Source of the DNA: Colwellia maritima
Lineage (GTDB): Bacteria > Pseudomonadota > Gammaproteobacteria > Enterobacterales > Alteromonadaceae
NCBI RefSeq assembly: GCF_022669015.1
Contig: NZ_JAKKSL010000001.1
Span: 600,059-664,058 of the forward strand
Reading direction: 5' to 3'
DNA: 64,000 nucleotides
The translations under genes and the position numbers were made by a program. Under the pieces are notes generated by a model. That model was not told the DNA's origin, searched no databases, and worked only from the letters and a program-made list of their open reading frames with translations. This document shows, in pieces, positions 13,645-52,604 of this stretch. How positions within the stretch are numbered: the stretch's first letter is position 1; the number at the start of each line of letters is the position of its first letter.

Positions 13645-13658
13645 GACGAGAAAATATT

Positions 13659-14686
13659 ATGAAATCATTATCAAAACTAAAACCAGAGCAAGGGATTTGG
13701 CTAACTGAAACAGATAAGCCTGAAATGGGGCATAATGATCTGTTAATTAAAATTAAGAAAACCGCCATTTGTGGTACCGATATTCATATTTACAATTGGG
13801 ATGAGTGGGCGAAAACCACGATACCTGTACCTATGGTTGTTGGGCATGAATATCTTGGTGAAGTGGTTGGTATTGGCCAAGAAGTTAGAGGTTTTGCCTT
13901 GGGCGATCGTGTTTCAGGCGAGGGCCATATTACTTGTGGTCATTGTCGTAATTGTCGTGGTGGACGTACGCATTTATGCCGAAATACGGTTGGGGTAGGT
14001 GTGAATAGAGCTGGTGCTTTTGCTGAATACCTTGTTATTCCTGCTTATAATGCCTTTAAATTGCCTGATGAAATTTCTGATGATTTAGCCGCCGTTTTTG
14101 ATCCGTTCGGTAATGCGGTTCATACAGCCTTATCATTTGATTTAGTGGGTGAAGATGTATTAATCACCGGTCCGGGCCTATTGGTATTATGGCCGCCGCC
14201 GTTGCAAAGCACGTGGGAGCTCGTCATGTAGTGATCACTGATATTAATGAATACCGTCTAGCTTTAGCTAAAAAAATGGGTGTAACACGTGCTGTTGACG
14301 TTTCAAAAGAAAATTTAACTGATGTAATGAGCGAATTAGGCATGACAGAAGGGTTTGATGTTGGGATGGAAATGTCAGGTGTACCAATGGCATTCACTAG
14401 CATGTTAGACAATATGAATAATGGTGGTAAAATCGCTATGCTCGGTATTCCGGGTAAAGATATGGCCATAGATTGGAGTCAAATAATCTTTAAAGGTTTA
14501 ACCATAAAAGGTATTTATGGTCGCGAAATGTTTGAAACTTGGTATAAAATGGCTAGTCTTATACAATCGGGCTTAGATTTATCACCTATAATCACTCATC
14601 ATTACGCTATTGATGATTTCCAACAAGGATTTGATGTGATGCGGTCAGGACAATCAGGTAAAGTTATTTTAAATTGGGAGAAATAG
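13659..14686 (+). CDS. tdh: L-threonine 3-dehydrogenase (apparent frameshift near 14195)
   Basis: Roughly 80% identical blocks to E. coli Tdh, including [23 protein letters not shown]. The two ORFs 13659..14231 and 14189..14686 are colinear with a single Tdh. Confidence 0.9.
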
Positions 14687-28144: not shown

Positions 28145-29623
28145 ATGCCTAATTCATGGATACACTTCACGCAGTCTTTATACGAATGGTTAGCTTTTTT
28201 GTTTATTTGGCTAATCGCCCTTGTCGTTGTGGTCATTGTCGCAATGTATATCATCGATAAATTTCAAACTAAACATGCCATTAGACGGAACTACCCTGTT
28301 GTGGGGCGTTTTAGGTATTTTTTTGAACATTTAGGTGGTTTTTTTAGACAATATTTCTTTTCAATGGACAGAGAAGAATTACCTTTTAATCGTGCTCAGC
28401 GCACTTGGATCTATAAAGCAGCAAAAAATATTAATAGCACCATTGCCTTTGGTTCGAGTAGAGATATAAAAAAACTCGGTTATATTTCGTTTGTTAATTG
28501 CCCGTTTCCCAGTTTAGATAAAAATGTTGAAGTTCCAAAAACAATCACTGTTGGTAGCCGATGTGAGTCACCTTGGAGTACTTCAGCTTTTTTTGGAATC
28601 TCGGCTATGAGTTATGGCGCAATCTCTAAACCTGCGGTTCAAGCACTTTCATATGGTGCAGCAAAAGCAGGAATATGGTTAAACACTGGGGAAGGCGGAT
28701 TATCCCCTTATCACTTGCAAGGCAATGCCGATATTATTTTTCAAATAGGCACCGCAAATTATGGCGTTAGAGATAGCGACGGTAATTTAGATGATGAAAA
28801 ATTATTAAAAATAGCCGCCTATTCACAGGTAAAATTATTTGAATTAAAATTATCTCAAGGTGCTAAACCGGGTAAAGGGGGTATTTTACCTGGCAGCAAA
28901 GTGAGTAAAGAGATTGCTGAAATACGAGGGATTCCTGAAGGGCATGATTCTATAAGTCCTAACCGACGAGTTGATGTTCATGACAATGATTCCTTGTTAG
29001 AAAAAATTCATCATATTCGCACGGTTACTGGTAAACCCGTGGGATTTAAAGCTGTTTTTGGTTCTCCTGATTGGATAGAAGAATTGTGTCTTTTAATCAA
29101 AAGTAAGGGGGATGAGTTTGCACCTGATTTTATCACATTAGACAGTTGCGACGGTGGTTCAGGTGCTGCACCAATGACATTAATGGATGATGTAGGAATG
29201 AGCATTAAAGAATCATTACCCGTGTTAGTTGATACCTTGATTAAGCACGGTTTAAAAGATCAAATAAAGGTTTTCGCTTCTGGTAAATTAGTTAATCCCG
29301 CAGATGTTGCTTGGGCGCTTTGTGTTGGGGCCGATTTTTGTAATTCAGCGAGAGGCTTTATGTTTTCATTAGGTTGTATTCAAGCATTACAATGCCATCA
29401 AAATACCTGTCCCACAGGTGTTACAACACACAACAAAAAACTACAAAGAGGTCTTGTTGCAAAAGATAAGTCTGAACGGGTGGCGCATTATGCTCATAAT
29501 ATGATGCATGCTGTTGGCATGATTGCTCATTCTTGTGGTGTTGATGATCCAAGAGAGCTGAATAAAAATCATGCCAGAATTGTTATTGAAAATGGTAAAT
29601 CAATATCAATTAAAGACTATTGA
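28145..29623 (+). CDS. Membrane-anchored FMN-binding glutamate-synthase-family protein (GltS FMN-domain paralog)
   Basis: N-terminal TM. GEGG...KLSQGAKPGKGGILPG and the C-terminal TIM-barrel motifs are like the GltB FMN domain. Confidence 0.75.
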   Translation: MPNSWIHFTQSLYEWLAFLFIWLIALVVVVIVAMYIIDKFQTKHAIRRNYPVVGRFRYFFEHLGGFFRQYFFSMDREELPFNRAQRTWIYKAAKNINSTIAFGSSRDIKKLGYISFVNCPFPSLDKNVEVPKTITVGSRCESPWSTSAFFGISAMSYGAISKPAVQALSYGAAKAGIWLNTGEGGLSPYHLQGNADIIFQIGTANYGVRDSDGNLDDEKLLKIAAYSQVKLFELKLSQGAKPGKGGILPGSKVSKEIAEIRGIPEGHDSISPNRRVDVHDNDSLLEKIHHIRTVTGKPVGFKAVFGSPDWIEELCLLIKSKGDEFAPDFITLDSCDGGSGAAPMTLMDDVGMSIKESLPVLVDTLIKHGLKDQIKVFASGKLVNPADVAWALCVGADFCNSARGFMFSLGCIQALQCHQNTCPTGVTTHNKKLQRGLVAKDKSERVAHYAHNMMHAVGMIAHSCGVDDPRELNKNHARIVIENGKSISIKDY

Positions 29624-29624
29624 T

Positions 29625-30040
29625 CAGGCAGTTTTTCGTCTAAGGTTTTCAAAGAACGGAGGAATAGGCCTAATCCTCCCATAGCCAAAATTAAAATAAC
29701 GATTAAATCAAACGAGGTCATGGATCTAAATGAGAAACGAATTGAAGAAATCACACCAAAAATTAGGCCGGTAATAGAACCAATTGATAATATCCGGACC
29801 TAGGATGCTTCTACCGTTATAAAAAATCAGACCCACACCAAACATAAAAGGTATCATCACCATACCGGCGGTTATATTATACTGACCACCCATTGCCGAA
29901 AATCCGTATAGGCGCATGCCCATACCAAAGCTTGAGCTAACTTGAATGGCATTGAGTAACATATAAAATCCACCACACATCATGATCAGGCCAATAAAAA
30001 ACTGCCCTAATCCGCCTGATGTTCCACCTGCTCCCTTCAT
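29625..30040 (-). CDS. Small hypothetical membrane protein (frameshift near 29780)
   Basis: Gly-rich hydrophobic ORF. The reading frame continues to about 29625 in another frame. Confidence 0.3.
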
Positions 30041-30312
30041 ATTGATTAAATCCTTAAATATTGATTAAAAGCGTTACTATTTGTAAGTATCATATAATTA
30101 TTAGTTTATAAATGTCACTAGAAAACGCTATGAAATTATGATGCTAGCTAAAATTTAATATAATGCTTTCTATTATTGATTATGCTAATTTGCCTGTCAT
30201 ATTAGTTACTATACGCCTTTGACATATTATGTCAAAGGCGTATAGTAATAACTTAGTCAAAAGTATAATGATTAAAATAGTTTAGATTAACTATTTGTTT
30301 TAAGGACGAAAT

Positions 30313-30891
30313 ATGGAACAACTGCTAGAAGTCGCTTCACAATTCCCTACGGTAATTTATTCTACATTGCTCGGCATCATCATTATTTATTGGTTGATTG
30401 GTATGCTTGGTTTGGTTGATTTAGATTTTGCAGGTGATATCGATATTGATGTTGACAGTGATGTTGATATGTCTGTTGGTGGACTTACAGGGTTAATGCT
30501 TACGTTTGGATTTGCGGGTATCCCCTTTAGCTTGGTGATCAGCATTATTATATTAATCTGCCGGTTAATAAGCGTATATTTGCAATTTTATTTATTAGCG
30601 TGGTTACCTGACGGTTGGTTATTTTATCTTGCCGGTACTGTCAGTAGTATTCTTGTGTTTATACTGTCTTTACCACTTACCGCCATTGCAGTACATCCAT
30701 TAAAAGGCTTGTTTAAAAGTGTCGAAACAACACTAAGTAATAACTTAGTCGGTAAAGAGGCAACTATTGCTACAGGGACGGTAAGTGAAACCTTTGGTCA
30801 AGCGCGTTTGTTTAATGATGGAGCCGAAATTTTACTGGATGTGCGCTGTGCTCCGGAACACATTTTAAAAAAGGTGATAGAGTTTTGGTAA
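30313..30891 (+). CDS. NfeD-family membrane protein with C-terminal OB-fold (YqiJ-like)
   Basis: Acidic DIDIDVDSDVD stretch, three TM helices and a C-terminal beta-rich domain. It is always paired with SPFH proteins. Confidence 0.7.
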   Translation: MEQLLEVASQFPTVIYSTLLGIIIIYWLIGMLGLVDLDFAGDIDIDVDSDVDMSVGGLTGLMLTFGFAGIPFSLVISIIILICRLISVYLQFYLLAWLPDGWLFYLAGTVSSILVFILSLPLTAIAVHPLKGLFKSVETTLSNNLVGKEATIATGTVSETFGQARLFNDGAEILLDVRCAPEHILKKVIEFW

Positions 30892-31015
30892 TAGAGTATC
30901 TTCGAGAAAAACATACTTATTTTGTTGCACCATACCCACTTTAACTACTGATTTATAAAGAATAATTTTTTGGTCACTTTGGCGTGGCTGCTGTTTTACA
31001 TAAGAGGAAAAAAAC

Positions 31016-32986
31016 ATGGTAATGGAACCACTTTATTTAGCTATAGGAATTGGCGTACTGTTCGTCTTTTCACTTTTAATTATGTTCGCTAAGTTTTACA
31101 ACAAAGTAGAGCAAGGCCAAGCGCTAATCATTAATAAACTTAGAGCTGAACCAGAAATCAGTACAACAGGCGGAATGGTTATTCCAATAATCCATAAAAA
31201 AGAAGTTATGGATATTTCTACTAAACGCATGATGTTAGAGCGTAAAGGCCGTTCAGGACTTATCTGCCAAGACAATATTCGAGCCGATATTATTATCACC
31301 TTTTATATTCGCGTGAACGAAACTAAAGAAGACATTTTACGTGTTGCTAAGCAAGTGGGTTGTGAACGTTCGTCATTCCCAGAAACATTACAAGAGCTTT
31401 TTGAAGCCAAATTTTCAGAAGCACTTAAAACAGTCGGCAAGCAGTTAAATTTTACTGAACTATTCACACAACGAGACAGATTTAGAGACAAAATTAAAGA
31501 AGTGATAGGTCAAGATCTTTCTGGCTACGTGCTTGAAGATGTTGCGATTGATTTTCTAGAACAAACATCAATAAATGATCTCGATCCAAGTAATATTATG
31601 GATTCAGAAGGGATCAGAAGAATCACTGAATTAACAACGCAACAAAGCGTTGAAACCAATGATTTAAAACGACAAGAAGAAATCCGTATTAAACGTCAAA
31701 ACATAGATGCAGAAGAAAAAACCTTAGAACTTGAACGCCAATTAGCTGATGCCAAAGCGAAACAAGAGCGAGAAATTGCTTCAGTGCAAGCCCGTGAAGA
31801 AGCAGAAACGGCAAAAATTGTTGAAGAAGAGCGCTGTAAATCTGAGCAAGCTAGAATAGCAACCGAGCAAGTAGTTGCGGTAGCCGAAGAAAACAAACAG
31901 CGTGAAGCTGATATCGCATGTCAAAACCGTTTACGTGCCGTTGCCATTGAAGAAGAGAAAGTGATTCGTGCACGCCAAGTGGAAGCCATTGATCGTGAGA
32001 AAGAAGTAGAAACCTTACGTATCGATAAAGAAAAAGCGCTTGAAGTAGAACGCAAAAATATTGCTGAAGTACAACGAGAACGTATTATCGTTGAAAAAGG
32101 AGTGGCAGAAGAGGAAGAACGAATTAAAGACTTACGTGTTGTGTCTGAAGCTAATCGTCAAAAAGACGAACAGGTTATCAAGGCTAAAGGTGAAGCTGAA
32201 GAATTGCTTGTTAAAGACATTGAATCCGCGAAAGCACAAGAACAAGCGGCAGAACATACAGCCAGAAAAATGCAAACTATTGCCGAAGCAGAATTAAAAG
32301 CGGCGAGTAAGCAATCAGAGTCTAAGAAAATTTTGGCTGAAGGTAATCAAGCCGCAGCAGCATCTCAAGGATTAGCAGAAGCACAAATTACCTTAGCGCA
32401 AGCAGATGCACATGAAAGACAAGGTGAAGCCGAAGCCAAAGCACTTGAACTTAAATTGACAGCTGAGGCAAAAGGTATTCAAGAAAAAGCGTTGGCGGAA
32501 GCAACTGGCTTAAGAGAGAAGCAAGAAGTATTAAATGCCATGTCTGAGCAAGCCCGTGAATTCGAAACATTTGGCCTGCGTTTAAATCAAGAGCGTGAAT
32601 TAACACTAGCCAAATTAAATAACAGTGTTGATTTAGCTGAGAAACAAGCAGATGTATTAGCAACGGCCTTAAGTGAAGCCAATATCAACATCATGGGTGG
32701 AGATGGAGAATTCTTACATCAATTTATGAAGTCAATCACTGTGGGTAAGTCACTTGACGGATTAGTAAATGAAAGTGAGACGGTAAAAGCTTTATTTAAA
32801 GAACACTTAAATGGTGAGCGCAATATTATGGACGATCTCCCTGGTGTTATGTCTGGCGCTTCAGTAGCCACAGAAACAATGAAAAACTTCAATATGGCTA
32901 AACTACTGTCAACCTTGAATGAGGCAGATGACACACAAAAAGGTGCACTGGCGAGTTTATTAAATTTGGGTAATAAAAAAACCTAA
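31016..32986 (+). CDS. Flotillin-like SPFH/band-7 protein (YqiK-like) with a long EA-rich coiled coil
   Basis: N-terminal TM and SPFH domain (IINKLRAEPEI...), then about 350 aa of E/A/K-rich heptad repeats. Confidence 0.8.
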   Translation: MVMEPLYLAIGIGVLFVFSLLIMFAKFYNKVEQGQALIINKLRAEPEISTTGGMVIPIIHKKEVMDISTKRMMLERKGRSGLICQDNIRADIIITFYIRVNETKEDILRVAKQVGCERSSFPETLQELFEAKFSEALKTVGKQLNFTELFTQRDRFRDKIKEVIGQDLSGYVLEDVAIDFLEQTSINDLDPSNIMDSEGIRRITELTTQQSVETNDLKRQEEIRIKRQNIDAEEKTLELERQLADAKAKQEREIASVQAREEAETAKIVEEERCKSEQARIATEQVVAVAEENKQREADIACQNRLRAVAIEEEKVIRARQVEAIDREKEVETLRIDKEKALEVERKNIAEVQRERIIVEKGVAEEEERIKDLRVVSEANRQKDEQVIKAKGEAEELLVKDIESAKAQEQAAEHTARKMQTIAEAELKAASKQSESKKILAEGNQAAAASQGLAEAQITLAQADAHERQGEAEAKALELKLTAEAKGIQEKALAEATGLREKQEVLNAMSEQAREFETFGLRLNQERELTLAKLNNSVDLAEKQADVLATALSEANINIMGGDGEFLHQFMKSITVGKSLDGLVNESETVKALFKEHLNGERNIMDDLPGVMSGASVATETMKNFNMAKLLSTLNEADDTQKGALASLLNLGNKKT

Positions 32987-32996
32987 GACGTGCATA

Positions 32997-33035
32997 ACCA
33001 ACACTGACTCAGTAATAACTAAGTCAGTGTTGGTT
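32997..33035 (+). promoter_or_regulatory. Strong 15-bp-stem hairpin between the flotillin gene and the giant ORF (attenuator/terminator without a T-tract)
   Basis: AACCAACACTGACTCAGT-aataact-AAGTCAGTGTTGGTT. Confidence 0.4.
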
Positions 33036-33108
33036 AAATAACGAAGCCAAGAATATTAAAAGTAGTTAATACGTTGCTTATCCTCGGCGAAAGCAACGTA
33101 ACAGCATC

Positions 33109-36100
33109 ATGGAGACTTACATGACAGATAAGGAAAGTGTCGCCAATCAAGCGGTCGCAGAAGGGGGCTCATATGAGCTTATTAAACGCCGGCTATCCAC
33201 CTTAGGTAGTGATTTAAATACACAAATTAAACAGTTGAATAACGAACGTGTTAACACGTTTGGCTCAACTGATATGAAGGTTGATGCGCGAGTTAGGGTG
33301 CGAACTGAACATAATTGTGTTGCTAGAGATATCGTGGCGATAGGCGATACTTTATTATTTGGATACAACGTTTTTTTAGGCTTAAAACGTAACATCACCG
33401 TTGCAGATGTTTTCAGTCTACATCAAATTCAAGAACAGGAGGGTGAAGTTGATATTGTTGACGTGCCAATGCAGGGGAGTTTTCTAGAACACCCTAATTT
33501 TGTACGCGATTTTGATGAACTGTACACTTACTATAACAAAACTTTTTTAGCACATGTCTATCGGCAAGGCAGCAAGGTTTACGCAATATTCCGTATTGGC
33601 GAACGACTTGATGATATACGAGTGTTTCGATGGGCAATTGATGCTAATCAGCAGGTTACCTATATTGATAATCGTGGTGAACGAGATATAAAACAACCTG
33701 AGAACTTTGATTTTCAATGGCATAAAGTGACTCGAGAGCAACAAGAGCAGGGAAAATATCCGCACTTTAATTTATTTGATACCCTGTTTGTCGAAACAAT
33801 TGGTGGTTCGATTACTTTAAAAGTTGAAAATAATACCGCAGAAGGGCAAGGCATTTATTCAGAGCCTGTTGATGACCCACACCAATCTTTAGATGATGCC
33901 GATATTCGTTATGCCAAAGTTGGCGAACTTATTCTATTAAAAATAAAGCCTTACCGCGAAGACAAAACACGCCATTTAATATTTAATTGTAAAACGCAAC
34001 AAGTGCTTAGACAAGATGCCATCGCCCATGCCTGTATTCAATTACCCGAAGATCACGGTATTATTTTTCCGGGTGGTTATTATCTGCAAAGTGGTGAGCA
34101 TAAGAGTTTTGAAGACAGCGCAGAGGATCTGCAATTACATCGTGTGGCAAAATCTCCTAACGGCGAAGATTTTCTGTATATTTTTTATGAGCCCAATGAA
34201 GGTCAATATGCCTTATTTGGCTATAACTTAATTACCAGAACACTGCAAAATCCAATTTATGGTCATGGGCAAAGTATATATAACAATGGTCGAGCCGTTG
34301 TTTTTAGTGCTGAATCTGAGCCATCGCGTGTTCATGCCATGCAAATATGGCAAACCCCTTTTTGTAGCGAAGAGCATGCCAGTACGCAACCAGTGGATAA
34401 TAGTTTTTTTGGCAAAATTGGTAATCCTGAGTGGTTCGTGGTGTTTCTGACTTATACGGCGTTGTTAAACTGATCACCGTGGAACAACCTAGTGCGCAAC
34501 ATTTTAATGACTTAGTCAAAGAAGCGGCTCAGCTGTTTGATAAATATCACTGGCTTAATGATAAATCATTGGTATCACTTCATGGGCTTATAAAGCAAGT
34601 AGTGACCACGGCTGAATTAGTGTTAGATGAGTTTGAAAAAGTATCTAGCATTAAAGCAAATGCCGATAATGTGATGTCTGGCGCAAAAGAAAAGTTAGCA
34701 AAACTTAGCTTGCACTTGAAACACCCAAGCTTTAACACAGCTAAAGAATATGTCGATAATTTAGCTGAGCTAGCGCAATTTAAAGGTGAATTGATTTCTC
34801 ATAAAGAACTGCGTTATGTGGATGTAGACGAAATCCACACAATGGAAATTAATGTAGATGAGTTAACTAAGCGCCTTAGCCAAGCAACCGCAGACTTTTT
34901 ACAAAAAGACAAAGCGCTAACACCTTATCACGAGACCATTAATGAGTTAGATAAAGCAGTAGAAGCAAGTGAATCGATTACGGCTTTAAAACCTATTCGT
35001 ACGTCCATAGAGTCATTGGTGGCAGGGTTAGATCTACTAAACCACACTATGCTGACGTTAGATATTGAAGACAGTAGACAAAGAACGCGTATTTTAGAAG
35101 ATATTTCAACGGTTTTTAGTCAAATAAACCGTGTTAAAGCAAGTGCAGATATTGCGGCTAAAAACGTCGGCAGTAAAGAAGCGCGGGCTGAATTTGGTGC
35201 AAGGTTTAAACTATTAAGCCAGAGTGTTACAAGTGGTTTAAATGCTAGCGATAGCCCGCAAGCGTGTGATCAGCAGCTGTCTCAACTACTTATTCAATTA
35301 GAAGAGTTAGAAAGCCAATTTAGCGATTATGATGAGTTTTATCAGGAGATTCTCGCTAAACGAGATGAAATATACGATAACTTTGAGCAACATAAACAAC
35401 AGTTAATGGACGCCCAAGCAGCGCCGTTGTTTAAATTTGATGACGGCAGCAACACGTATCATCGAAGGGGTTATTCGTCGTAGTCAATCATTTAATGACC
35501 GAGATAAATTAAACAGTTATTTTTTGGTGACCCAATGGTTGCCAAGCTCAGACAACTTATTGAGCAGTTACGAACGCTTGATGATAATGTGCGCGCTGAT
35601 GACATTGACGCTCAATTGAAAAATGCCAAAGAGCAAGGGATCCGTTCCCTAAGAGATAAAACTGATATCTATTCGGCTGATGGTAGCTTAGTCAAAATTG
35701 GTGAACATCAATTTTCAGTGAATAAACAAAAATTAGAATTAACACTGTTACCGCGTGATCACACCATGGTATTGCATATTAGCGGCAGTGAATATTTTGA
35801 AACCCTTGCACCTGAGTTATTTGCCAATACTGAACACTTATGGCAACAAGAATTGGTGTCTGAATGTGAGAATGTGTATCGCGCAGAATACCTTGCTGCT
35901 ACTATTTTATTTGAAGCTGAAGTGTCAGGTAAAGCAAAGTTAGATAGCCTCAAAGCGGCAGTACAGCAAAATACGTTAGTTGATTTGGTAAGAAAAACGG
36001 CAGAACCATTATACCAAGAAGGTTACGACAAAGGCGTGCACGATGCTGATGCCGCACTAATCTTAACGCAATTATTATCCTTGAAAGAATCAATAGGACT

Positions 36101-38212
36101 ATTAGCTTATCCCGCTCAAGAACGAAGGTTAGCCGTGCTGTTTTTTACAACAGCACTCACAACAACTGAGCGAAATGACTTAATACATCGTTGTCAAAAC
36201 CTGCACTTAATGGAAGAAACATTTGGTAGTGGTCAATTACGACAACAATTAACCAAAGAACTCGCCGCCAAATTGGATAATTATCTTACCAGTCAACCGT
36301 GGTTAGTTTCTGACCCATTATTATCGGCAACCTATTTAGTGTACGAATTGGCATTAGGCGAAAAATTTGTTATTAAAGAAGCGAGTGTTGAATTAGCTGA
36401 ACAGTTAACCAGTCAGCTGAAACAAAAAAGCATAGAAAAGCAAATTAGTAGTGCGTTAGTCCGGTTGTTCTTCCATAGAGCAAAAATATCAACTACATCT
36501 TGCTTGGGTGCAATCATTTGTTAATTATCAGCATATTAGCAACCAATTAGATGTCATTATTGAAGCATCACTGTTTTTAATGATGTCAGATAAATGTGAG
36601 TTTTATACTTCTAACGCGAATACTGATTGTGTGGTGGAAGGACTACTCGGACAGCACACGCAAATTGTAGATAGAAAAATTGCAATTAACTATCAAGCAT
36701 TTATTTCAAAGTTACGTCAATTTAGTAACGAACGTGTTACTGCCTTTAAGAAATTTCATCAAAAGAAACAAAGTGTATTGGACGCACAGCGTAAACGATT
36801 ACGTTTAGAAGAATTCAAACCGAGAGCACTGTCTTCGTTTGTTCGAAATAAGCTGATTAATGATGTATATTTTCCAATTATAGGTACCAATTTAGCGAAA
36901 CAAATTGGTGCAGCAGGTAATAAAAAGCGCTCCGATTTAATGGGATTATTATTACTTATTTCACCGCCAGGTTATGGTAAAACAACCTTAATTGAATATG
37001 TTGCCAGTAAGTTAGGCATGACTTTCGTAAAAATTAATTGTCCCTCTATCGGTCATGATCAATTGTCACTTGACCCAAGCACAAGCTAGTAATTCAACCG
37101 CAGAAAATGAGGTGAAAAAAATCAATTTAGCGTTTGAAATGGGCAACAATGTCATGCTTTATCTTGATGATATTCAACATACTAATCCTGAATTTTTACA
37201 AAAATTCATTTCCCTATGTGATGGTTCAAGAAAGGTTGATGGCGTATTTAATGGTAAAAGCAAAACCTATGATATGCGTGGCAAAAAATTTGCTGTGGTG
37301 ATGGCAGGTAACCCATATACCGAATCGGGCGAAGCCTTTTCTATTCCTGATATGTTAGCCAACCGCGCAGACATTTATAACCTGGGTGATACCTTAAGTG
37401 GTCGTGAGCACGAATTCTCCTTGAGCTTTATTGAAAACAGTTTAACCAGTAACCGTTATATCGCGCCTTTAGCTACCCGAGATATGGATGATCTGTATAA
37501 ATTGGTTCAAATAGCTGACGGAAACCCAATAGCAACAACAGAATTGCAACATGGTTATTCACAAGCTGAAGTAAACGAAATAGTTGCCGTAATTAAGCGA
37601 ATTCGTAAGATTCAAGAAACAGTATTAAAAGCTAATGCCCAATATATAGCTTCTGCTGCACAAGACGATAAATACCGAACAGAGCCACCGTTTAAGTTGC
37701 AAGGTAGTTATCGAAACATGAATAAAATGGCCGAAAAAGTTGTGCCAGTAATGACCGATGAAGAAGTGGAACAACTTATTGCTGATCATTACCGTGGTGA
37801 GGCGCAAACACTTACTGTTGGCGCGGAAGAGAACCTATTGAAATTGGCAGAAATCAGAGGCAATCAAACCGCAGAACAGTTGACGCGTTGGCAACAAATA
37901 AAAGCAGACTATGTACGTCATAAAAATCTGGGTGATAATGACAACCCTATAGCGACAATTGCTAACCAAATATCGTTACTGCAACAAGGGTTGAATCAAA
38001 TTGGACAGGCGTTACAACAGCCTCAATCTGAGGGATTAGCCGCGTTAAATGAAACCCTAGCGAGCCTCAAGCTACAAGTTAATGTTGAAAAACCTGACCA
38101 CTCAGCTTTAGAGCAAGCAATGTCTTCATTTTCTGAACATGTCGACTCATTTTTAACGCCACTTGTAACCGTACTGCAAAGTAATAAAAGTGTTGTCTTT
38201 GGCGTTGGTTAA
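33109..38212 (+). CDS. Giant (~1,700 aa) uncharacterised protein with a C-proximal MoxR/dynein-type AAA+ module. It appears as five frame-shifted ORFs (33109..34473, 34431..35483, 35535..36524, 36508..37089, 37055..38212).
   Basis: Consecutive overlapping ORFs on the same strand have no RBS or gaps between them. Walker A LISPPGYGKTTL, Walker B VMLYLDDIQH and a MoxR-like sensor region FAVVMAGNPYTESGEAFSIPDMLANRADIYNL are present. There are N-terminal beta-rich and central coiled-coil regions. Confidence 0.5.
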
Positions 38213-38490
38213 TACGTTACAGAATATGGAGATAGGCTCCAGTGACACAGACATAAGTTCCAATACTGATTCGTCTAAGGCAAGTAAATCGAATAAAGTA
38301 CTAACAACTAATACCGAAGAGAAAACAGAAGATAACTCAGATGAAATTGTAATTAAGTGATGATTTTTGGTTTTAATTTTATTCATACTATGGGATATTA
38401 ATCTTAATGATGTTGACATAAGCTTGGAGTAGCTTAGATAAAACCATTATGGTCTGTTTACATTATTTATAATTTTAATTAGGAGATTTC

Positions 38491-38649: not shown

Positions 38650-38717
38650 AAAACAATAAAGTGCTTAACAACTTTTAAAATAGCAGGGTACGATTTTACC
38701 CTGCTATATTTACTTTC

Positions 38718-40244
38718 TTAGTCCTTTTTATGAACCTGAATACTATATAAGTCATGGCGTCTATCGCGCATGGTATGTACTGCACCGTGATTATGTAGTT
38801 GTTTGAGCAAATCAATATTCACATCCACAATAACTGTCATTTCTGAATTTGGCGTTGCCTCGGCTTTAATACCCGTAGTTGGAAAGGCAAAATCAGCGGG
38901 CGTAAATACAGCAGACTGCGCATACTGAATATCCATATTGTTTACTTTGGGTAAGTTTCCTACTGCACCGGCAATGGCCACGTAACATTCATTTTCAATG
39001 GCCCTTGCCATGGCACAATGCCGTACTCGTGTATAACCGTTTTGTGTATCAGTTAAAAACGGCACAAATAAAATATTCATACCTTGATCAGCTAAAATTC
39101 TTGCGTACTCTGGAAATTCCACATCATAGCAAATAACAATGCCTATTTTTCCACAATCGGTGTCAAATACTTTAAGGTTGTTTCCCCCCACCATCGACCA
39201 ACTACTCACTTCAGTCGGCGTAAGGTGAATCTTGTCGTAACGTTCCCATGAGCCATCACGACGACATAAAAAACCAGAGTTATACAGGCTTTCATCAACG
39301 AAAAACGGCATACTACCAGTAATAATATTAATATTATAAGTGATGGCTAATTCAATAAATTTATCTCTAATTTGTTCAGTATACTCAGCTAATCGGCGAA
39401 TACTTTCTGTTAACCGTAAATGATTAAATGCGGCCATTAACGGGGCGTTGAATAATTCAGGAAACATGACAAAATCACTTTTGTAATCTGAAACAGCATC
39501 AACATAAAACTCCATTTGATCAAATAAATCATTAATGCCTTTCATCGACCGCATTTGCCATTGCACTAAACCTAACCTAACTTCTGAGCGTGGTGCATTG
39601 ATTAGTTTGACATTCTTAGTGTAAAAAATATTGGGCCATTCAAGTAGGGTGGCATACTCTAATGATTCTGTATCGCCAGATAAATACCCTGTGAGTAACT
39701 TACGTACATAAAAGTCATTAGCGAGTTGAAAACTTAAAACGGGATCATACAACTCTTTAATTTTTACTTTTTCTATGTATTGTTTGGCTGACATTGTACT
39801 CGCATGCTTTGCGTAATTTGGCATGCGTCCACCCGCGATAATGGCGCGTAAATTCAAATTTTCACACAGCTCTTTGCGAGCATCATATAAACGTCTTGCT
39901 AAACGCAAGCCTCGATATTCAGGATGAATGAAAACTTCAATGCCATACAAGGAATCTCCTTTCGGGTCATGATTGTCAAAGGTCATATTACTGGTAATTT
40001 CGGCATACGTATGCTCATCACCAAAATTAGCATATTCAATAATGAGTGAGAAAGCACAGCCGACAACGATACCATCAACCTCTACACAAATTTGACCATC
40101 AGGAAACTTAGTTAATAACGCTTTCACTGTGGGTTCATCCCACGTTGACAATTCTTTGTTAAGGTAAACCGACTCGCTTGCTTTACGTAGTTCAGTCATG
40201 TCTTGTAAGGTTAAATGACGAACGATGACACTATTAGCTTCCAT
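38718..40244 (-). CDS. Bifunctional GNAT N-acetyltransferase / carbon-nitrogen hydrolase (nitrilase superfamily) fusion protein
   Basis: N-terminal GNAT (HPEYRGLRLARRLY). The C-terminal CN-hydrolase has the catalytic triad Glu (FPE), Lys and Cys (VICYD). The start is assumed at MEANSV with an AGGAA RBS. Confidence 0.8.
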   Translation of the reverse strand: MEANSVIVRHLTLQDMTELRKASESVYLNKELSTWDEPTVKALLTKFPDGQICVEVDGIVVGCAFSLIIEYANFGDEHTYAEITSNMTFDNHDPKGDSLYGIEVFIHPEYRGLRLARRLYDARKELCENLNLRAIIAGGRMPNYAKHASTMSAKQYIEKVKIKELYDPVLSFQLANDFYVRKLLTGYLSGDTESLEYATLLEWPNIFYTKNVKLINAPRSEVRLGLVQWQMRSMKGINDLFDQMEFYVDAVSDYKSDFVMFPELFNAPLMAAFNHLRLTESIRRLAEYTEQIRDKFIELAITYNINIITGSMPFFVDESLYNSGFLCRRDGSWERYDKIHLTPTEVSSWSMVGGNNLKVFDTDCGKIGIVICYDVEFPEYARILADQGMNILFVPFLTDTQNGYTRVRHCAMARAIENECYVAIAGAVGNLPKVNNMDIQYAQSAVFTPADFAFPTTGIKAEATPNSEMTVIVDVNIDLLKQLHNHGAVHTMRDRRHDLYSIQVHKKD

Positions 40245-40752
40245 AAATATTCCTAGAAGTATTGATATTGCCACATTGTCTGCCAGTACTGGCGTAAAAG
40301 GCAATCAAATCTTAATGATCAAATCAAAATAATTGTAAATATTAGGTGAATTTATCCCTGTGAAAACCTGATTAATAGCAATATTTTTAGATAAAAAATA
40401 TTGCTATTTCATGTGTGTATGGCATAAAGATACTATTAAACATTTGCTATTAATTAAGATAGCAACAGTAGAAGCTTGTTTTAAAGCAAAGAATGGTTGT
40501 ATTTTTTCCGTCATTATTTTTATTGCTCAAAGGAATAGTAAAGGAAAACTCTGATACTAAATCTTGTTCAAGATGCAATTCAGACATGGTATTGCGAAAA
40601 GCCACTAAAGGTAAAAACGCAGGCAATGAGTTTTTAGGGATGTAGTGCATTTCCTAAATGCAGAAATGTGGTTGAAATTGGTTAGTAAAATTTAGGTTTT
40701 TAATAAAAAAATTCATTGCGCATATTTAGGCTCTGTTAAAAGGAATTGAAAA

Positions 40753-42945
40753 ATGAACAAACTAAGCATTAACTTTGAAAATTGTTACGGTATTAACAAA
40801 CTTGAATATGAATTTGATTCAGAAGAAAGTGGTAGCAGTAAAGGGGTCTATTCCATATACGCACCTAATGGTTTCATGAAAAGTTCATTCGCCAGAGCAT
40901 TTGAAGATGTACAGTTTGGGAAGTTAAGTCGAGATATTGTTTTTCCAGAACGAGAGACAAAAAGGGAAATAATTATTGATGCTGAGAATATAGAGCCTGA
41001 AAGTATTTTTGTCATTAAACCCTACAGTGAAAGTTATAGCTCAGAGAAAACCTCATTACTTCTTGTTAATGAGGAATTGAAAAAAAAATATGATATTGCA
41101 TTAAAAGAGATAGAGCAAAAGAAAGCAGGTTTAATCAAGTCGTTAAAAGAACAATCAGGGATAAAATCCAGAACGGTTTCCGTTGAATCAATACTATGTA
41201 AATCATTCGAAAAAAGTGAAAAGGATCTCTCTGATTTGTTTTCAGAATTGCTCGAATTGACAGATGACTTCTCTCATTTCTCAGGAATAAAGTATGGCGA
41301 TATATTTAACGATAAAGTTATCAAATTTCTTGAGTCAGGCGATTTAAGTAAAGAGCTTGAGGACTATATTCAAACTTATGACACCCTTATTGAAAAATCA
41401 CCTGTATTAACAAGGGAGTTTAATCATCAAAATGCGGTAATCATATCAAAAAGCCTAAAAGATACTGGTTTCTTTGGAGCAGAACATACAGTAAATTTAA
41501 CATTGCCTACAGGAAAGCATGAAGTATCTTCTCAGGAAAAATTGACCCAGTTAATCAAAGAAGAGCAGGATAAAGTAATTACTGATCCTGATTTATTGAA
41601 GAAATTTACTGCTATTGATAAAAAATTAAGTAATGCTGAAACTAAAAAATTCAGAGAGTATATTACTGATCATAAAGATTTATTACCTGAGTTGAAAGAA
41701 TACAGAAAATTTGAGAAAAAACTCTGGATTGCATATTTGCAAAAGCAACCCGAATTCTTGAGAGAGTTTGTAGCAACCTACCAAACCAATAAACAATTGA
41801 TTATAGATATAACTCAAGTCGCGAAAGATGAACAAACAATTTGGCAATCAGTCGTTTCTACTTTTAATAAACGATTTAATGTGCCTTTCAATTTAACAAT
41901 TGAGAATCAAGATGATGTTATTTTACAGAGTGCTTCTCCTACAATTGCTTTTGAATTTGATGATGGACGAGAAAAAAGGGATATTAATAAAACAGATTTA
42001 ATGGATGTTTTAAGTCAGGGAGAGAGAAGGGCTTTATATATACTTAATTTGTTATTCGAAATTGAAGTGAGATTACGGCACACAACGCCAACACTATTTA
42101 TTGTTGATGATATTGCAGATTCATTTGACTATAAAAATAAATATTCTATTGTCGAGTATTTAAAAGTTATAGCAGAGACAAGTTATTTTAAGGTTATTTT
42201 CTTAACTCATAATTTTGATTTTCATAGAACTATTTGCGGTCGTATTGGAATTTATGGAAATAAGCGTTTATTTACGATTAAATCTGACAGTAGAATTAAA
42301 TTTACTCAAGAAAAATATCAAAGAGATGTATTGAATCACTGGAAAACACAACTTCATATAGATATGAAATGTGTTTTGGCCTGCATACCATTTGCTAGAA
42401 ACCTATCTGAATATTGTGGAAACACAGGCGAGTATAATTTGTTAACAGCTCTCCTTCACCTTAAGCCAAATACTGATGATTTAAGGATTTCTGATCTCCA
42501 AACAATTTATCAAAATGTATTCACAGATAAAAGTAATGTTGAATTACCTGCACCTCAAAATCTGATAACTGAACAATTAATGCAGGTAAGTGAAGCTATT
42601 GTTGCAGAGGCCAGTGATGAAGCTCAACTCGAAGATAAAATAGTTCTTTCGATAGCCATAAGACTTGAAGCAGAAAAGTTTATGATACGAAAAATTAACG
42701 ATCAAGGCTTTGTAAATGATATTAGGACTAATCAAACACAAAAGCTCTATGAACGTTTTTGTAATGATTTTGGCGATGAGCAAGAAAGCATAATAGCACT
42801 TGACCAAGTAAACTTAATGACGCCTGAAAACATACATCTTAACTCTTTTATGTACGAACCGATTTTGGATATGTCAGCAATTCATCTATATAAATTATTT
42901 AATGATGTTAAAGCCCTAAATACTTCTGGTAACGACAATGATTAA
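40753..42945 (+). CDS. SMC/RecF-like ABC-type ATPase with a degenerate P-loop, a long coiled-coil insert and a ~250-aa C-terminal extension (candidate defense ATPase)
   Basis: N-terminal head with IYAPNGFMKSS in the Walker-A position, ABC signature LSQGERRAL, Walker B LFIVDDIAD and H-loop IFLTHN. About 350 K/E-rich residues lie between Walker A and the signature. Confidence 0.6.
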   Translation: MNKLSINFENCYGINKLEYEFDSEESGSSKGVYSIYAPNGFMKSSFARAFEDVQFGKLSRDIVFPERETKREIIIDAENIEPESIFVIKPYSESYSSEKTSLLLVNEELKKKYDIALKEIEQKKAGLIKSLKEQSGIKSRTVSVESILCKSFEKSEKDLSDLFSELLELTDDFSHFSGIKYGDIFNDKVIKFLESGDLSKELEDYIQTYDTLIEKSPVLTREFNHQNAVIISKSLKDTGFFGAEHTVNLTLPTGKHEVSSQEKLTQLIKEEQDKVITDPDLLKKFTAIDKKLSNAETKKFREYITDHKDLLPELKEYRKFEKKLWIAYLQKQPEFLREFVATYQTNKQLIIDITQVAKDEQTIWQSVVSTFNKRFNVPFNLTIENQDDVILQSASPTIAFEFDDGREKRDINKTDLMDVLSQGERRALYILNLLFEIEVRLRHTTPTLFIVDDIADSFDYKNKYSIVEYLKVIAETSYFKVIFLTHNFDFHRTICGRIGIYGNKRLFTIKSDSRIKFTQEKYQRDVLNHWKTQLHIDMKCVLACIPFARNLSEYCGNTGEYNLLTALLHLKPNTDDLRISDLQTIYQNVFTDKSNVELPAPQNLITEQLMQVSEAIVAEASDEAQLEDKIVLSIAIRLEAEKFMIRKINDQGFVNDIRTNQTQKLYERFCNDFGDEQESIIALDQVNLMTPENIHLNSFMYEPILDMSAIHLYKLFNDVKALNTSGNDND

Positions 42946-43669
42946 TCAGAAAAAGTTTCGGCCAATTTTGAATGATATTGCAACACGTTCATTTCGAGAT
43001 GTAGCAGATAATGACTATATTACTGCCCGTTTATGTTACATCAATCGTTTATACCCACAATATATTTGGTATTCACAACAAAGCGTTGAAAAATATTTAA
43101 AGGCGATATTGCTGTTTAACATGCAATCAACAAGAAAATTACGCCACAATCTTGAAAAAGCATATGAAAGAATAACTGAACTTATACCAAAGCTTGGAAT
43201 GGAATTATCTGACACGACAGTTAAGTATATTCAGTATTTGGACACTTGGGGGGAGAATAGGTATTTCGAAAAAGCTCATTTCATCTCCCCATGCAATAGA
43301 CTGGATAAACTAGATGAAGCCGTTTGGGAAATTAGGCGTTATTGCAAATATTTTAATAAGAACTATGAAAGCTACAAGCTTGAACTAGAACAGGCTCAAA
43401 AGGCAACATCAGATCAGAAAGTGCAGTTTATAACAAATGGTATTTTAGAGAAGATAATTAATAATGATAATCATATTCATCATTCAATACTTTTAACTTG
43501 TAATAGACACTTTGGTGACTTCTCTGAAGAAGTTCACACGCCACTTCATGCAATAAACCCAACGCAAACTTTACACCCTGAGTATTTCGAAGAACTAAAC
43601 AAGTACATACAGTTTCCAAAAGAAGTTGTTGATACATATAAGGAAATAAATAGCCACGCTGACCTATAG
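42938..43669 (+). CDS. HEPN-like alpha-helical protein (putative RNase effector), translationally coupled to the ATPase
   Basis: ATGATTAA overlap with the upstream stop. Residues 46-72 read SQQSVEKYLKAILLF…TRKLRHNLE, resembling the classical HEPN helix (QQAxEKxLKAxL…R-x-x-x-H). Confidence 0.4.
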   Translation: MINQKKFRPILNDIATRSFRDVADNDYITARLCYINRLYPQYIWYSQQSVEKYLKAILLFNMQSTRKLRHNLEKAYERITELIPKLGMELSDTTVKYIQYLDTWGENRYFEKAHFISPCNRLDKLDEAVWEIRRYCKYFNKNYESYKLELEQAQKATSDQKVQFITNGILEKIINNDNHIHHSILLTCNRHFGDFSEEVHTPLHAINPTQTLHPEYFEELNKYIQFPKEVVDTYKEINSHADL

Positions 43670-45505: not shown

Positions 45506-47937
45506 TTATCTAGCGATACTCTGTAAAACTTCAATTGACACTAAGTTAGTGACAGACGATTTCAGTTCATCCATTGTAGAACAAACAACAAGTAAACCTT
45601 CGTCATTCAAGGTCATATAACCCTGCTCTCGTAGTGTATTAATTAACGTGGCCTGTGCTTTTTTATCAATAAATTCTGGCGCAGTAATATTGTTTAATAC
45701 GGCTAAGCGCTTAGCAATAGCCACAACTTTCTCCTCTAATTCTCGTCTTGAAAGCGGTGCTAAACGTGTCGCTAATGAGGTGATGATTGCTAACCTTTGT
45801 AGGCTTTCATCAATACATTCCGCGAGTAAATGTACTTGATTAAGCTGAGGAGTATTATCGATTAAAGACCAAAAATTTGCTTTGGTTTGCTTAATGACAC
45901 CGTTGCCTTCTAATGCTATCAGTAAACTTTCAACTTGCTGTGTAATTTGCTGAGGTGTTTGCCACAGAAATAAGTCTGTTTTTAGGGTTTTCAATAAACT
46001 AATTGTTTGGGAAATTATTTTCTCATGAGATATTTTGCTGTTATGTGTCAATAACCTACATACTAAAGAACTTAATGCGTAAGTGTGCAATATATTATTA
46101 CGGTAATAACGCATTTCTAAACTAGCAGAATCATCAAGTGAAATAATGGTACCAAAACTGTCTTGACACAGGGTTACCTTGTTGAGAGAAATAACATGTT
46201 CAAGTAATTCAGCTCCGTTTTCTTCTGGTATAGTTAAATGTTCACTGTAGGGTGCTTCACGCTGAATAGTCAGGAAAAAATCTAAGTGTTTTTCAAGGTC
46301 AGCCTTAGCTAGCGCTTTGTTTTCGCAAGCATGTAAAATTAAGGCAACCAACGCCACACCGTTCAATGCAGCGCATTGGTTAATGCGGGTCATTAACTGA
46401 TTTGATATTTCGTTAACGGTAGGTGTTAACCAATTCGGCTTTTGTGGATCAAATGGGTCTATGGCTTCTTTCCACTTGGTACTTTCTCGTTTAAATAACT
46501 ATTAATATTGATAGGGTCGCCGAAGTTTACATAGCCATTACCATAATTTCGTAAGCTTTTAATTGCTTTTAACACGCCAAAAATAGATTCGTTTTTCTTG
46601 GCGCTACCGCTTAACTCTTTATGATAGGTGCCTACTTCCATGACATGTTCATAGCCTAAATACACAGGAACTAAGGTTAATGGGCGATCTATTCCGCGCA
46701 GAAGGCTTTGAATGGTCATTACTAACATGCCTGTTTTTGGCGGTAATAACCTACCTGTGCGACTTCTTCCACCTTCGGTATAATATTTAACGGAATAACC
46801 ACGTTCAAATAATAAGCTTAGGTATTCACGAAAAATAGTAGAATATAAACGGTTGCCAAGCAAAGCTTCGGCGGATAAAAAAGGCACCACCTTTTCTAAA
46901 AATGGTGCCTGCCGGCCAGAAATTTAGGTTAATACCGGCTATACGTGGCATAACTAAACCTTCTTGAATAATGACATAAGAAAGTAATAAGTAATCCATG
47001 TGGCTTCTATGGCAAGGTACATAGATAATTTCGTGACCGTCTTGTGCTAATTTTCTTAATACTTGTGAATTGTTGACTTTTATATTGGTATATAAACGCC
47101 CCCATAGCCGCCTTAAAAAGCGTTCCCCTAAACGAACTAATGAAACGCTATAATCGCCCGCTATTTCATCCATCATAGCAAAGGCTTGTTTTTTGACTTT
47201 ATCAGTACTGATATTTTTATTTTTGGCTTCATCTTTAATAATGCGTTTTACCGTGGGTTAGCGAATAAAGCGGTAAACATTTGTTGGCGATGAAGTAGTC
47301 GCGGCCCCTTGGCTGCAATGTTTTGACGATGAAAATGAAAACGCGCCACACGCAGTAACTTGTGAGCGGTTGCTTCGTTATTTCCGTGATTATCAGACAT
47401 TATTCTTAATGAGAGTGCTTCGCTATAACGAATTAAGTTATCGCGACCGAGAAAGAGAACTATAAAGAATTTTCTTAGCCAAGTAGGGGAAGCTTGCTCG
47501 GCTAATAAAGAGGAAACATTAGCGTTGTTTTTTTCTTGTGTTGGTATGCGCCCCCAAATAAGATTAACGGGGATAAGTTGTGCATCAAGGGTTTTGTTAT
47601 TGTGATGTTGATTGAGAATTTCTAACCCTTGCTGTAGTGCTTTAGTTTTACCGCGTTTTAAGCCAAGAATCGATGTAGGTTTGGCTAAACATAAAGTGCG
47701 ATCAAATAGCGTGTTGTTTATTTTTACCTTGCTTAACGGATCAGGCAGTTTTTGTTGTTTACATGCCTTTTGCAAGGCAAGCAAATCACTAGCTGACTGA
47801 TGGCTGATAACATAAAAAATGGGTTTTGATGCTGTTTCAACGGGCGTTTGTGCATCTAGCACTATTTTGCTACGAACAAATAAACGTAGAGGAAGTTTCA
47901 ATAAAAAGTAAAAAGAAGAACGCAGTACAGATGTCAT
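45506..47937 (-). pseudogene. plsB: Glycerol-3-phosphate acyltransferase PlsB, fragmented by at least 3 frameshifts (ORFs 47248..47937, 46826..47176, 46459..46890, 45506..46393)
   Basis: The four ORFs are colinear with E. coli PlsB, including the HXXXXD motif region [15 protein letters not shown] and [10 protein letters not shown]. Confidence 0.85.
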
Positions 47938-50267: not shown

Positions 50268-50549
50268 TTTATTTCATTTCCTTGATAGTAGTAAAAATGC
50301 TAAAGATGTTAGATGCAAAAAATATATTAATGGTAAAGAATCAAATAATCCAGTGCATTATTTTTTTAAGTTGTATTAAAGCTTGGTTTTCCTCTTCATG
50401 TTTTCCTTCATAGTACACACTGACATAATTTTTTTGTACTTAATATAAAGTGTGATTTTAATTTCAATGGAGTAATTAGGCCCTCTCGCAATTGTTCCCT
50501 CTTTAGGTATATACTTAATAAAATTAAAAAAACTGACCAAGTAACGCTG

Positions 50550-51447
50550 TTGAATGCTATTGAAATTAGCCAATTAAGCTATAAATACCCTCAAAATAAT
50601 TATTATTCTTTGCATGATGTTTCTCTCAATATTAGAGCCCAATGTTGTACAGGCATTATAGGACCTAATGGGGCGGGTAAATCTACATTTATTTCTGCTT
50701 TATGCGGTTTAATACCTAGCTTTGAAGGAAGTATTGAATACCCAAGTATGTCTGGTAAATCTAAAGCATTAATTGATTGTGTGAAAGATAAAGTGTCCTT
50801 GGTTCCACAAGAATATGCTTTTTATCCGCAGTTAACTGTTTTACAAAACTTACATTATTTTTTATCGCTTTGTTGTATTCATAACAGTGAATGGAAAATA
50901 TTCGGCGGATATTCTTGCTCAATGTGAGTTAAACGAAGTAAAAAATCACAAAGCTAAAAATTTATCGGGTGGTTATAAACGTCGGCTAAATATAGCCATT
51001 GCGTTGGTAAAAAAGCCTGAAGTATTGTTTTTAGATGAACCTACCGTGGGTATTGATCCTGAATCAAGAGCTGTAATTATTAGATTACTCGAATCATTTA
51101 AATTACAAGGGAAAACGTTATTATTTACTTCTCATATGTTAGATGAAGTAGAGAAAATTTGTGATGATATTATTGTTTTTCGTGATGGTAAGGCGCAAAT
51201 GAACGAAAAACATCAGCAAGAGAATATTTTACTTACTGTGCGTTTTAATCAATCACCTGATAATCTTGATTTTTTAACTATATATGAGCAAAGTGCGAAC
51301 AACACATACCAAATTGTACTTAATTCACCTGAAGCGTTAGCGGCTCAATTACAACAGCTAACGCAAGTTGCCCATCAAATAATTAACATAAATTATTCAG
51401 CTAATTCTGTAGAGCGCATTTACAATCACACGCAGGCGCCTAAATGA
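50550..51447 (+). CDS. ABC transporter ATP-binding protein (ABC-2 type exporter; frameshift near 50900)
   Basis: Walker A GPNGAGKST, signature LSGGYKRRL and Walker B LFLDEP are split between ORFs 50550..50927 and 50887..51447. Confidence 0.8.
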
Positions 51448-52604
51448 TATTAAACAGTTTAAAAAAAGAAGCGCTGATTATATTAAGTGATATTCATAGT
51501 ATTGGCGTATTATTAATTTTGCCAGTTGCGTTTATGTTGATAATGACATTTGCAATGAGTGGTCAATCACAAGATGCCATAGGCAAAATTACGGTAAAGG
51601 TAAGTAGCACAGAGAATCATCTCTATGTGACTGCTTATCAACAGTATTTACAACAGCAAGGCTTTATAATATCAGACAAGAATAATGCTGCAGATTTGTT
51701 AATATCGTTACCCAATGATTTTGAAAAAAATATTAACGGGATTAACAGCTAAATCTATTGTTTTGACAATAAAAGAAACGATCACCCCATCAATGCAACC
51801 TATGGTTATTCAACTAGTGCACGGGGCTTTTTCAAAACTACGATTACATGCATACATGTTAGATATAGGCGACTTGAATGATCAAGCGCCTTTACAAGAT
51901 CAAATAAGTGAAATAGATAAAAATACTAATGTTGAACAGTTTTTTTTAATTGATGAACTCGATCAACCGCTTACATCGGCAACGCTTTATAGCGTACCGT
52001 CATGGATAATTTTTGGTATCTATTTTATTGTTTTACCCGTGTCTATTACGGTAATAAACGAGCAGAAAAATGGCACGCTTATTCGACTGAAAACATTTCC
52101 AATTAGTACGTCACATTATTTTTTTACTAAGGTTAGTGCTTTTTGTTTATTGAGCTCAATACAGTTTGTCATATTAACCCTTATTGGCATTTTTGCTGTA
52201 CCAGTGCTTACTGCGCAACCTTGACTATTACGGTTAGTTATTGGCCTATTTATTTGTTGTCAGGGCTTGTTATTGTTGTATCAGCCAATGCACTAGCCTT
52301 TATTATTGCAGCTGTAGTCAATAGTTATGAACAAGCCATTGTATTAGGTGGTGGTATTAATATTTTATTAGCAGCGGTTAGTGGGTTTATGGTGCCGATG
52401 AACATCATGCCTGAAATAATGGCTACGATTGCAAGTTACTCTCCGTTATATTGGTCTGCAGAGATCATTCGCGCATCGTTTATAGGAAACAATACAAGCT
52501 TAATTTATACTTACCTAACTAATTTATTACTTTTTAGTGTAGTAAGTTTTACTATGGCGAGATACTTGTTTGTAATGAAAATTAGGAAATTAATGTGGAA
52601 TTAA
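51444..52604 (+). CDS. ABC-2 family transporter permease (two or more frameshifts; ORFs 51444..51752, 51715..52224, 52143..52604)
   Basis: Polytopic membrane ORFs directly downstream of the ATPase and overlapping it by 4 nt. Confidence 0.55.

Follow-up and report, generated by a model that had tools for sequence, protein, structure and literature searches.

Here we report that a three-gene operon of Colwellia maritima is almost certainly orthologous to the bacC-bacD-bacE core (PA3730-PA3728) of Pseudomonas aeruginosa and that its largest gene, which encodes a giant AAA+ ATPase, appears in pieces through frameshifts that are errors of the assembly. The operon lies on the + strand of a stretch of 64,000 nucleotides (nt) of contig NZ_JAKKSL010000001.1 (positions 600,059 to 664,058), called the window hereafter; coordinates refer to the window unless a locus of a relative is named. 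Its first gene (30313..30947) encodes a YqiJ/NfeD-like inner-membrane protein of about 212 amino acids (aa) with 3-4 transmembrane (TM) segments, assigned as the BacC/PA3730 orthologue by hhalign, TM scan and family consensus. The second (31016..32986) is intact and encodes a 656-aa YqiK-type flotillin-like protein, the BacD/PaFlo3/PA3729 orthologue according to its hhalign match to YqiK. The third (33121..38360), assigned by orthologue alignment and Pfam as that of BacE/PA3728, encodes the giant ATPase, about 1,745 aa long once corrected. The three genes follow one another on one strand and in this order both in the window and in the relatives. The module has already been described by comparative genomics and the window adds no biochemical function to it; the window holds another copy of a catalogued module, whose odd look comes from a sequencing artefact.

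In the uncorrected sequence, the + strand showed open reading frames (ORFs) at 30313-30891, 31016-32986, 33109-34473, 34431-35483, 35535-36524, 36508-37089 and 37055-38212. The original prediction, made from the sequence alone, had taken the last five of these as pieces of one very large protein broken by frameshifts. Our analyses agree that they belong to one gene, which encodes about 1,745 aa. The ORF boundaries cut two Pfam domains mid-way: positions 1-408 of the DUF3686 profile were found in one ORF and positions 409-448 in the next, and the first 35 positions of the AAA profile, with Walker A, were separated from Walker B in the following ORF. In tblastn, the orthologue of C. psychrerythraea ND2E, which is intact at 1,748 aa, tiled the pieces in alternating frames with 75-89% aa identity. 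Nucleotide alignment with three close relatives located six 1-nt indels, which coincide with the ORF boundaries: a deletion at 34431, an insertion at 35418, a deletion at 35523 and insertions at 36459, 37077 and 38203. When these were corrected, the ORF extended over 1,749 codons with zero internal stops and regained the conserved C-terminus (...EDNSDEIVIK, compared to ...ENNSDEVVLD in the orthologue). The number of pieces and the end of the gene had to be revised, since there are six pieces and the last one (38190-38360) moves the end from 38212 to 38360. We placed the likely start at ATG 33121 because this codon stands behind a conserved GGAG Shine-Dalgarno sequence and because of a 450-aa NCBI protein, the 'DNA repair ATPase' of Colwellia sp. 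MSW7 / C. maritima, to which the first ORF of the giant gene was 100% identical. The relatives carry the gene almost always as a single ORF of 1,650-2,070 aa (80 loci), and 76 out of 81 cluster members are single ORFs. NCBI annotates the pieces separately, as the 450-aa protein and a 385-aa hypothetical protein, and each piece contains a possible start codon, as would be expected if the five ORFs were distinct genes with their own starts. Given the bisected domains, the indels at the boundaries and the single ORFs of the cluster members, we attach practically no probability to that reading.

The frameshifts were not specific to the giant gene, and we conclude that an assembly of low accuracy introduced the breaks in it and in the YqiJ-like gene as single-base errors, which do not reflect biology, since unrelated housekeeping genes of the window carried indels at an equal density, about 1 per kb window-wide. 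The stop-to-stop ORF map showed abutting same-strand ORFs throughout the window. An AcrB gene at 57776-60837 was found in four pieces with consecutive Pfam coordinates (41-296, 299-676, 681-835 and 836-1021) and an aminotransferase was broken in two (profile positions 2-143 and 145-361). Pfam also revealed split genes for a zinc alcohol dehydrogenase, an ABC ATPase, an ABC-2 permease, an M20 peptidase and PlsB, and further examples of broken housekeeping genes occurred at 311-1340, 12270-13641, 13641-14683, 45509-46923 and 50424-52601. Within the operon, the YqiJ-like gene had suffered a 1-nt deletion in the A-run at 30867-30872, so that the called ORF stops at 30891 instead of the true end at 30947; after the A-run, its C-terminus (KGDRVLVIEYL...) reads in another frame and agrees with the family consensus. 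Programmed frameshifting was rejected, since the shifts are absent in relatives and unrelated genes are broken alike. The same indels could mean that the giant gene has truly been inactivated in this Colwellia strain by accumulated frameshifts. Six indels in 5.25 kb, most of them outside long homopolymers, would fit such a pseudogene, as would family members that are split in other assemblies (566+1198 aa in P. aeruginosa, 710+608+489 aa in Deinococcus, and loci L038 and L077) and the listing of PA3728 among the genes recurrently mutated in cystic fibrosis isolates. Nevertheless, the housekeeping genes are hit as densely, the neighbouring YqiJ-like gene and one upstream gene are frameshifted as well, no in-frame stop codon interrupts the corrected codons, and the pieces have kept their high identity to the intact orthologue. 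We therefore consider true inactivation quite improbable.

Splits of the giant gene were seen in several assemblies (L038, L077, L081, which is P. aeruginosa, and L083), a frequency expected for a gene of 5 kb. In an 8.1-Mb genome (L084, 6729-14843), the gene was called as 1,091 + 702 aa with a 4-nt overlap, which may be a real split or an error. Many public entries of the family are fragments named 'partial', 'MoxR-like ATPase', 'DNA repair ATPase' or 'hypothetical'. As the gene is often split in draft assemblies, annotation pipelines spread such misleading fragments, and the annotation of the MSW7 assembly will abound in them, given its low per-base accuracy.

The corrected protein is soluble. 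From its N-terminus, a helix leads into a beta-propeller, which is followed by a long helical arm, one MoxR-like AAA+ domain and a tail of helices. Pfam identified DUF3686 at residues 35-481 (33211..34551, E 2.2e-190), covering the N-terminal helix and the propeller; DUF7902 at residues 602-682 (34911..35153, E 3.6e-23), within a helical middle of about 800 residues; and one AAA domain at residues 1281-1404 (E 9e-9). The TM scan found no TM or hydrophobic segment. The single AAA+ core (36949..37378) contains the Walker A (PPGYGKTT, 36964-36987), Walker B (LYLDDIQH, 37157-37180) and sensor-1/Arg-finger (GNPYTESGE..LANRADIY, 37307-37378) motifs, all on the + strand and all present in the ORF translations, as had been predicted. 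Walker A, Walker B, the sensor-1 Asn and the Arg finger were invariant among 30 homologues, in which the AAA+ region was extremely conserved. The predicted beta-rich N-terminus was also borne out: an AlphaFold2 model of residues 1-454 (predicted local distance difference test, pLDDT, 80.7) showed an N-terminal helix followed by an all-beta region (57-415), and its Foldseek matches were exclusively beta-propellers (RACK1, CyRPA, Elp1) with low TM-scores. The model makes the fold class clear and points to no specific relative. A second model, of residues ~1131-1635 (pLDDT 75), showed one AAA+ domain of the alpha/beta type together with a lid and a C-terminal domain made of helices; a beta-hairpin (E245-250, E253-258) separates the Walker B strand from the sensor-1 strand. 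The motifs sit in a clade-7-type fold with this pre-sensor-1 beta-hairpin, as in the MoxR class, and the closest solved folds found by Foldseek were the MoxR-class NorQ and CbbQ. The NP..E.GE...P..L.NR pattern appears to resemble the MoxR sensor-1/Arg-finger motif. In Pfam, AAA_5 passed its cut-off (29.4 bits vs 22) and AAA_3, the model of MoxR proper, stayed below (E 0.13, 12.6 bits vs 27). PDB searches with the corrected protein and with the ATPase family profile returned no solved structure related by sequence beyond the P-loop.

In the original prediction, this architecture belonged to no recognised family. The combination of DUF3686, DUF7902 and AAA does define one, and the protein matches a known one over its whole length, BacE/PA3728, which is itself biochemically uncharacterised and whose operon has been published (PMC11237479). 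We scanned for the family in one genome per species and found a relative in at least 593 species. Full-length homologues were taken from genome loci and from a representative library, since a search of protein entries gave only sequences shorter than 900 aa. At 50% identity, the family falls into about 663 representative clusters, of which 241 have E <= 1e-30, and most representatives have 1,600-2,040 aa and a propeller at the N-terminus. The core proteins evolve slowly, with 45-57% identity across classes.

The original prediction had called the two upstream genes a canonical yqiJ/yqiK-like pair. Their homology to that pair stood, but they are not canonical: neither protein matched Pfam Band_7 (PF01145) or NfeD (PF01957) even at E <= 1, and their relatives gave no Band_7 or NfeD match. 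Membership of the SPFH/NfeD superfamily rests on profile alignments to E. coli YqiK and YqiJ, by which we consider both proteins probable members. The family of the 656-aa protein (A3) aligned with YqiK over 405 columns (hhalign probability 99.9%, E 2.6e-35), spanning the TM segment, the SPFH domain and the coiled coil, and that of the YqiJ-like protein (A4) aligned with YqiJ at a probability of 93.8% (E 1.7e-7). One relative of the YqiJ-like protein reached the Pfam YqiJ_N cut-off (E 7e-5), and the flotillin-like protein gave a weak NCBIfam FloT match (E 1.7e-4). The latter has a single N-terminal TM segment (residues 6-24), an SPFH domain and a long EA-rich coiled coil; the former showed 3-4 TM or hydrophobic segments in the TM scan. 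Profiles of the two families found nothing meaningful among the PDB sequences.

The linkage of the ATPase to the flotillin-like gene, which the original prediction had described as conserved-looking, was complete in the loci examined. For the linkage and length counts we kept the 80 closest loci and examined three further ones; linkage was counted by tblastn on the retrieved loci, with those having enough flanking sequence as denominators. Both the flotillin-like and the YqiJ-like gene were found directly upstream of the giant gene and on the same strand in 76/76 loci. Further upstream, PspA_IM30 occurred in 47/71 loci and DUF2170 (YjfI-like) in 45/71, and downstream a rhomboid gene was present in 25/71 and PLDc_2 in 23/71; a Zn-ribbon protein was also recurrent among the neighbours. 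The trio was adjacent in Deinococcus lacus too, as well as in the 8.1-Mb genome (L084), where it is followed by PspA_IM30 and by another AAA protein (589 aa). The P. aeruginosa locus encodes, in order, DUF2170, PspA_IM30, proteins of 213 and 688 aa, the DUF3686 giant and a PLDc_2+YaeQ protein, corresponding to bacA-F (PA3732-PA3727). Among the genes that follow the giant ATPase, that of P. aeruginosa is this PLDc_2 + YaeQ fusion (BacF; L081 15259-16596) and that of C. psychrerythraea (L004 15487-17064) encodes 526 aa with a PLD-like domain; DrmC, MkoC and DpdK have PLD domains similar to those of these downstream genes (E 1e-8 to 1e-10). A TFIIB-type Zn-ribbon gene is divergent from the YqiJ-like gene in relatives (L001 6005-7260, L004 6437-7230) and missing from the window (29623-30312); in other genera, the same gene sits downstream, within the operon. 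The window gene upstream of the operon, a homologue of L001 6005-6433, is frameshifted near 29793-29798.

Upstream of the operon, a perfect palindrome of 43 nt without strand (30206..30248) reads TTACTATACGCCTTTGACATA T TATGTCAAAGGCGTATAGTAA and carries TTGACA-16-TATAGT on both strands. The palindrome is conserved at the corresponding place in L001 and L002 and partly in L004, and both arms have changed together in the Colwellia relatives (L002). On these grounds, its simplest reading is a probable promoter overlapped by a predicted dimeric operator. No sigma-54-like site was found in 30064-30312, and the pattern was not enriched in the window. The 142-nt intergenic region between the flotillin-like and ATPase genes folded at -47.3 kcal/mol (z = -6.4), in keeping with the strong hairpin that had been noticed there. 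This first hairpin (32995..33036, + strand), 3' of the flotillin stop, is followed by a second one (33070..33100, + strand), 10-20 nt 5' of the GGAG Shine-Dalgarno of the giant gene; both were identified by folding and have no T-run. The first hairpin is specific to the C. maritima genome, occurring once in the window and being absent from relatives, on which grounds a repeated element was rejected, and the second recurs in Colwellia relatives, where its stem sequences differ. A terminator-like hairpin (38680..38707, + strand) lies between the end of the operon and a convergent gene at 38718-40304.

What the three proteins do together can be outlined as follows. The YqiJ-like and flotillin-like proteins would form an SPFH/NfeD scaffold, with the cytoplasmic face of the inner membrane as the site of action. 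The ATPase would assemble into a ring via its AAA+ domain, reach the scaffold through the propellers carried on its long helical arms, and use ATP to assemble, disassemble or unload the scaffold and associated PspA (ESCRT-III-type) polymers during envelope stress, as a functional analogue of Vps4 in its action on ESCRT-III, or of the FtsH enclosed by the HflK/C cage. Fuller operons would add a CesT-like regulator (DUF2170/BacA), PspA, a rhomboid protease and a PLD-family hydrolase, while Colwellia keeps the core alone and would rely on a pspA gene elsewhere in its genome. As an overall explanation, identity and mechanism together, we give this account an even chance. For the mechanism itself, an ATP-driven remodeller of a flotillin/PspA membrane-stress assembly with a putative complex, oligomeric state and substrate, our confidence is somewhat lower and the proposal is tentative. 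The narrower claim that the giant ATPase is a dedicated remodeller of flotillin cages and/or PspA polymers, the bacterial counterpart of Vps4 or of FtsH within HflK/C, we consider possible and rather doubtful. If true, the never-broken linkage would reflect an obligate three-protein machine for membrane repair.

Published work on the operon bears on this proposal. Mace et al. (2008) defined bacA-D, and Wallart et al. (2024, PMC10948618) found by reverse transcription PCR (RT-PCR) that PA14_16140-16200 form one operon; in a bacA mutant, the products of PA14_16190 (bacE) and PA14_16200 (bacF) were up 6-9-fold together with BacB-D (PMC10948618). Ravi et al. (2024, mSystems, PMC11237479) described the operon and a widespread abbreviated form with flotillin, YqiJ and the ATPase, possibly with PspA encoded elsewhere, and proposed chaperone-like or membrane-dynamics roles. 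The membrane remodelling machine of the original prediction was reached by inference and is identical to the published idea. Several points weigh against the proposal. No pspA, PLD or rhomboid gene adjoins the module in the window, and no VWA family was found among the conserved neighbours of the examined loci. Deletion of paFlo3 (bacD) in P. aeruginosa reduced biofilm by about 20% and gave no stress phenotype (PMC13086221). We found no published experiment in which a member of the family hydrolysed ATP, oligomerised or bound flotillin or PspA. In addition, the verdict of an assembly artefact rests on the window-wide pattern. Our literature searches found no paper mentioning DUF3686, none characterising the ATPase and nothing relevant on flotillin together with MoxR.

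Two other functions were weighed against remodelling. The module could serve anti-phage defence or abortive infection, with a flotillin/PspA sensor coupled via the ATPase to a PLD- or YaeQ-type nuclease effector. Expression of PA3728-PA3732 rose in every phage-infected sample, the PLD partners are similar to the corresponding domains of DrmC, MkoC and DpdK, BacF fuses PLDc_2 to YaeQ, the three operon genes are the only ones syntenic between the window and its closest relatives, and a full-length PADLOC PDC-S46 candidate and a HEPN protein lie 2.4 kb downstream. However, the Psp-type induction by phage belongs to the general response to envelope stress, and PLD is present in only about one third of the loci and absent in the window. 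No PADLOC 2.0 model matched the core proteins beyond the P-loop level (IetA, mad8; E >= 4e-5), and 8/10 large neighbouring genes in relatives were without a PADLOC match. Slow evolution and one conserved order in more than 590 species are also unlike typical defence genes, and we judge a defence function improbable. A role in DNA repair, which the databases suggest (Pfam PF12458, 'ATPase involved in DNA repair'; NCBI, 'DNA repair ATPase'), is less probable still, to the point of being very hard to credit. One paper repeats the annotation, and the protein has a weak, P-loop-level similarity to RuvB, but this is confined to the Walker A region, and MoxR-type ATPases are structurally closer. Pfam detected no DNA-binding or nuclease domain in the corrected protein, the strictly linked partners are all membrane proteins, no repair genes occurred among the conserved neighbours, and we found no paper tying the family to repair. 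The databases probably misname it 'DNA repair ATPase'.

As for the genes downstream of the operon, the 730-aa ORF at 40753-42945 (+) gave the full-length PADLOC PDC-S46 match (E 6e-264) and is followed by the HEPN-domain ORF at 42920-43666 (+), with which it forms a candidate defence pair.

The interest of the remodelling proposal lies in the family, which is large and evolves slowly and whose members were always accompanied by their flotillin partner in the examined loci; a strictly linked AAA+ protein of 1,750 residues would be a candidate for the disassembly or regulation of flotillin/PspA polymers. Among known systems, the E. coli yqiJ-yqiK pair is homologous to the two upstream Colwellia proteins and shares their order and orientation. 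In contrast to the Colwellia operon, it has no giant ATPase downstream, sibD/ibsD being found there instead, and the Colwellia proteins have diverged beyond what the Pfam Band_7 and NfeD models recognise. The MoxR class belongs to the AAA+ clade that includes midasin and dynein, and its proteins, about 270-500 aa long, normally act with a VWA/MIDAS partner. MoxR-class ATPases (CbbQ, NorQ, RavA) provide the nearest solved folds, and AAA_5 was above threshold in the Colwellia protein; unlike in MoxR proteins, however, the ATPase domain is here the C-proximal part of a 1,750-aa propeller protein. In the HflK/C-FtsH and Vps4-ESCRT-III systems, the coupling of a membrane scaffold or polymer to a ring ATPase is established, and we infer that the Colwellia module shares this coupling logic. 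The Colwellia ATPase differs from FtsH and Vps4 in having no protease or MIT domain and in belonging to another AAA+ clade.

The closest counterparts are the bac operon and its abbreviated form. The P. aeruginosa operon (bacABCDEF, PA14_16140-16200) has the same three core genes, order, strand and ATPase architecture, with identities to Colwellia of 34% for the YqiJ-like protein, 51% for the flotillin-like protein and 53% for the N-terminal region of the ATPase. In Colwellia, the genes for DUF2170 (BacA) and PspA (BacB) are missing upstream and that for PLD+YaeQ (BacF) is missing downstream, and the P. aeruginosa operon has a sigma-54-type promoter whereas a sigma-70-like promoter lies inside the palindrome in Colwellia. 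With the abbreviated operon of Ravi et al., which combines a band-7/flotillin protein, a YqiJ/YuaF protein with three TM segments and an AAA+ protein with coiled coil and beta-propeller, the Colwellia operon agrees feature by feature, and we found no substantive difference between them.

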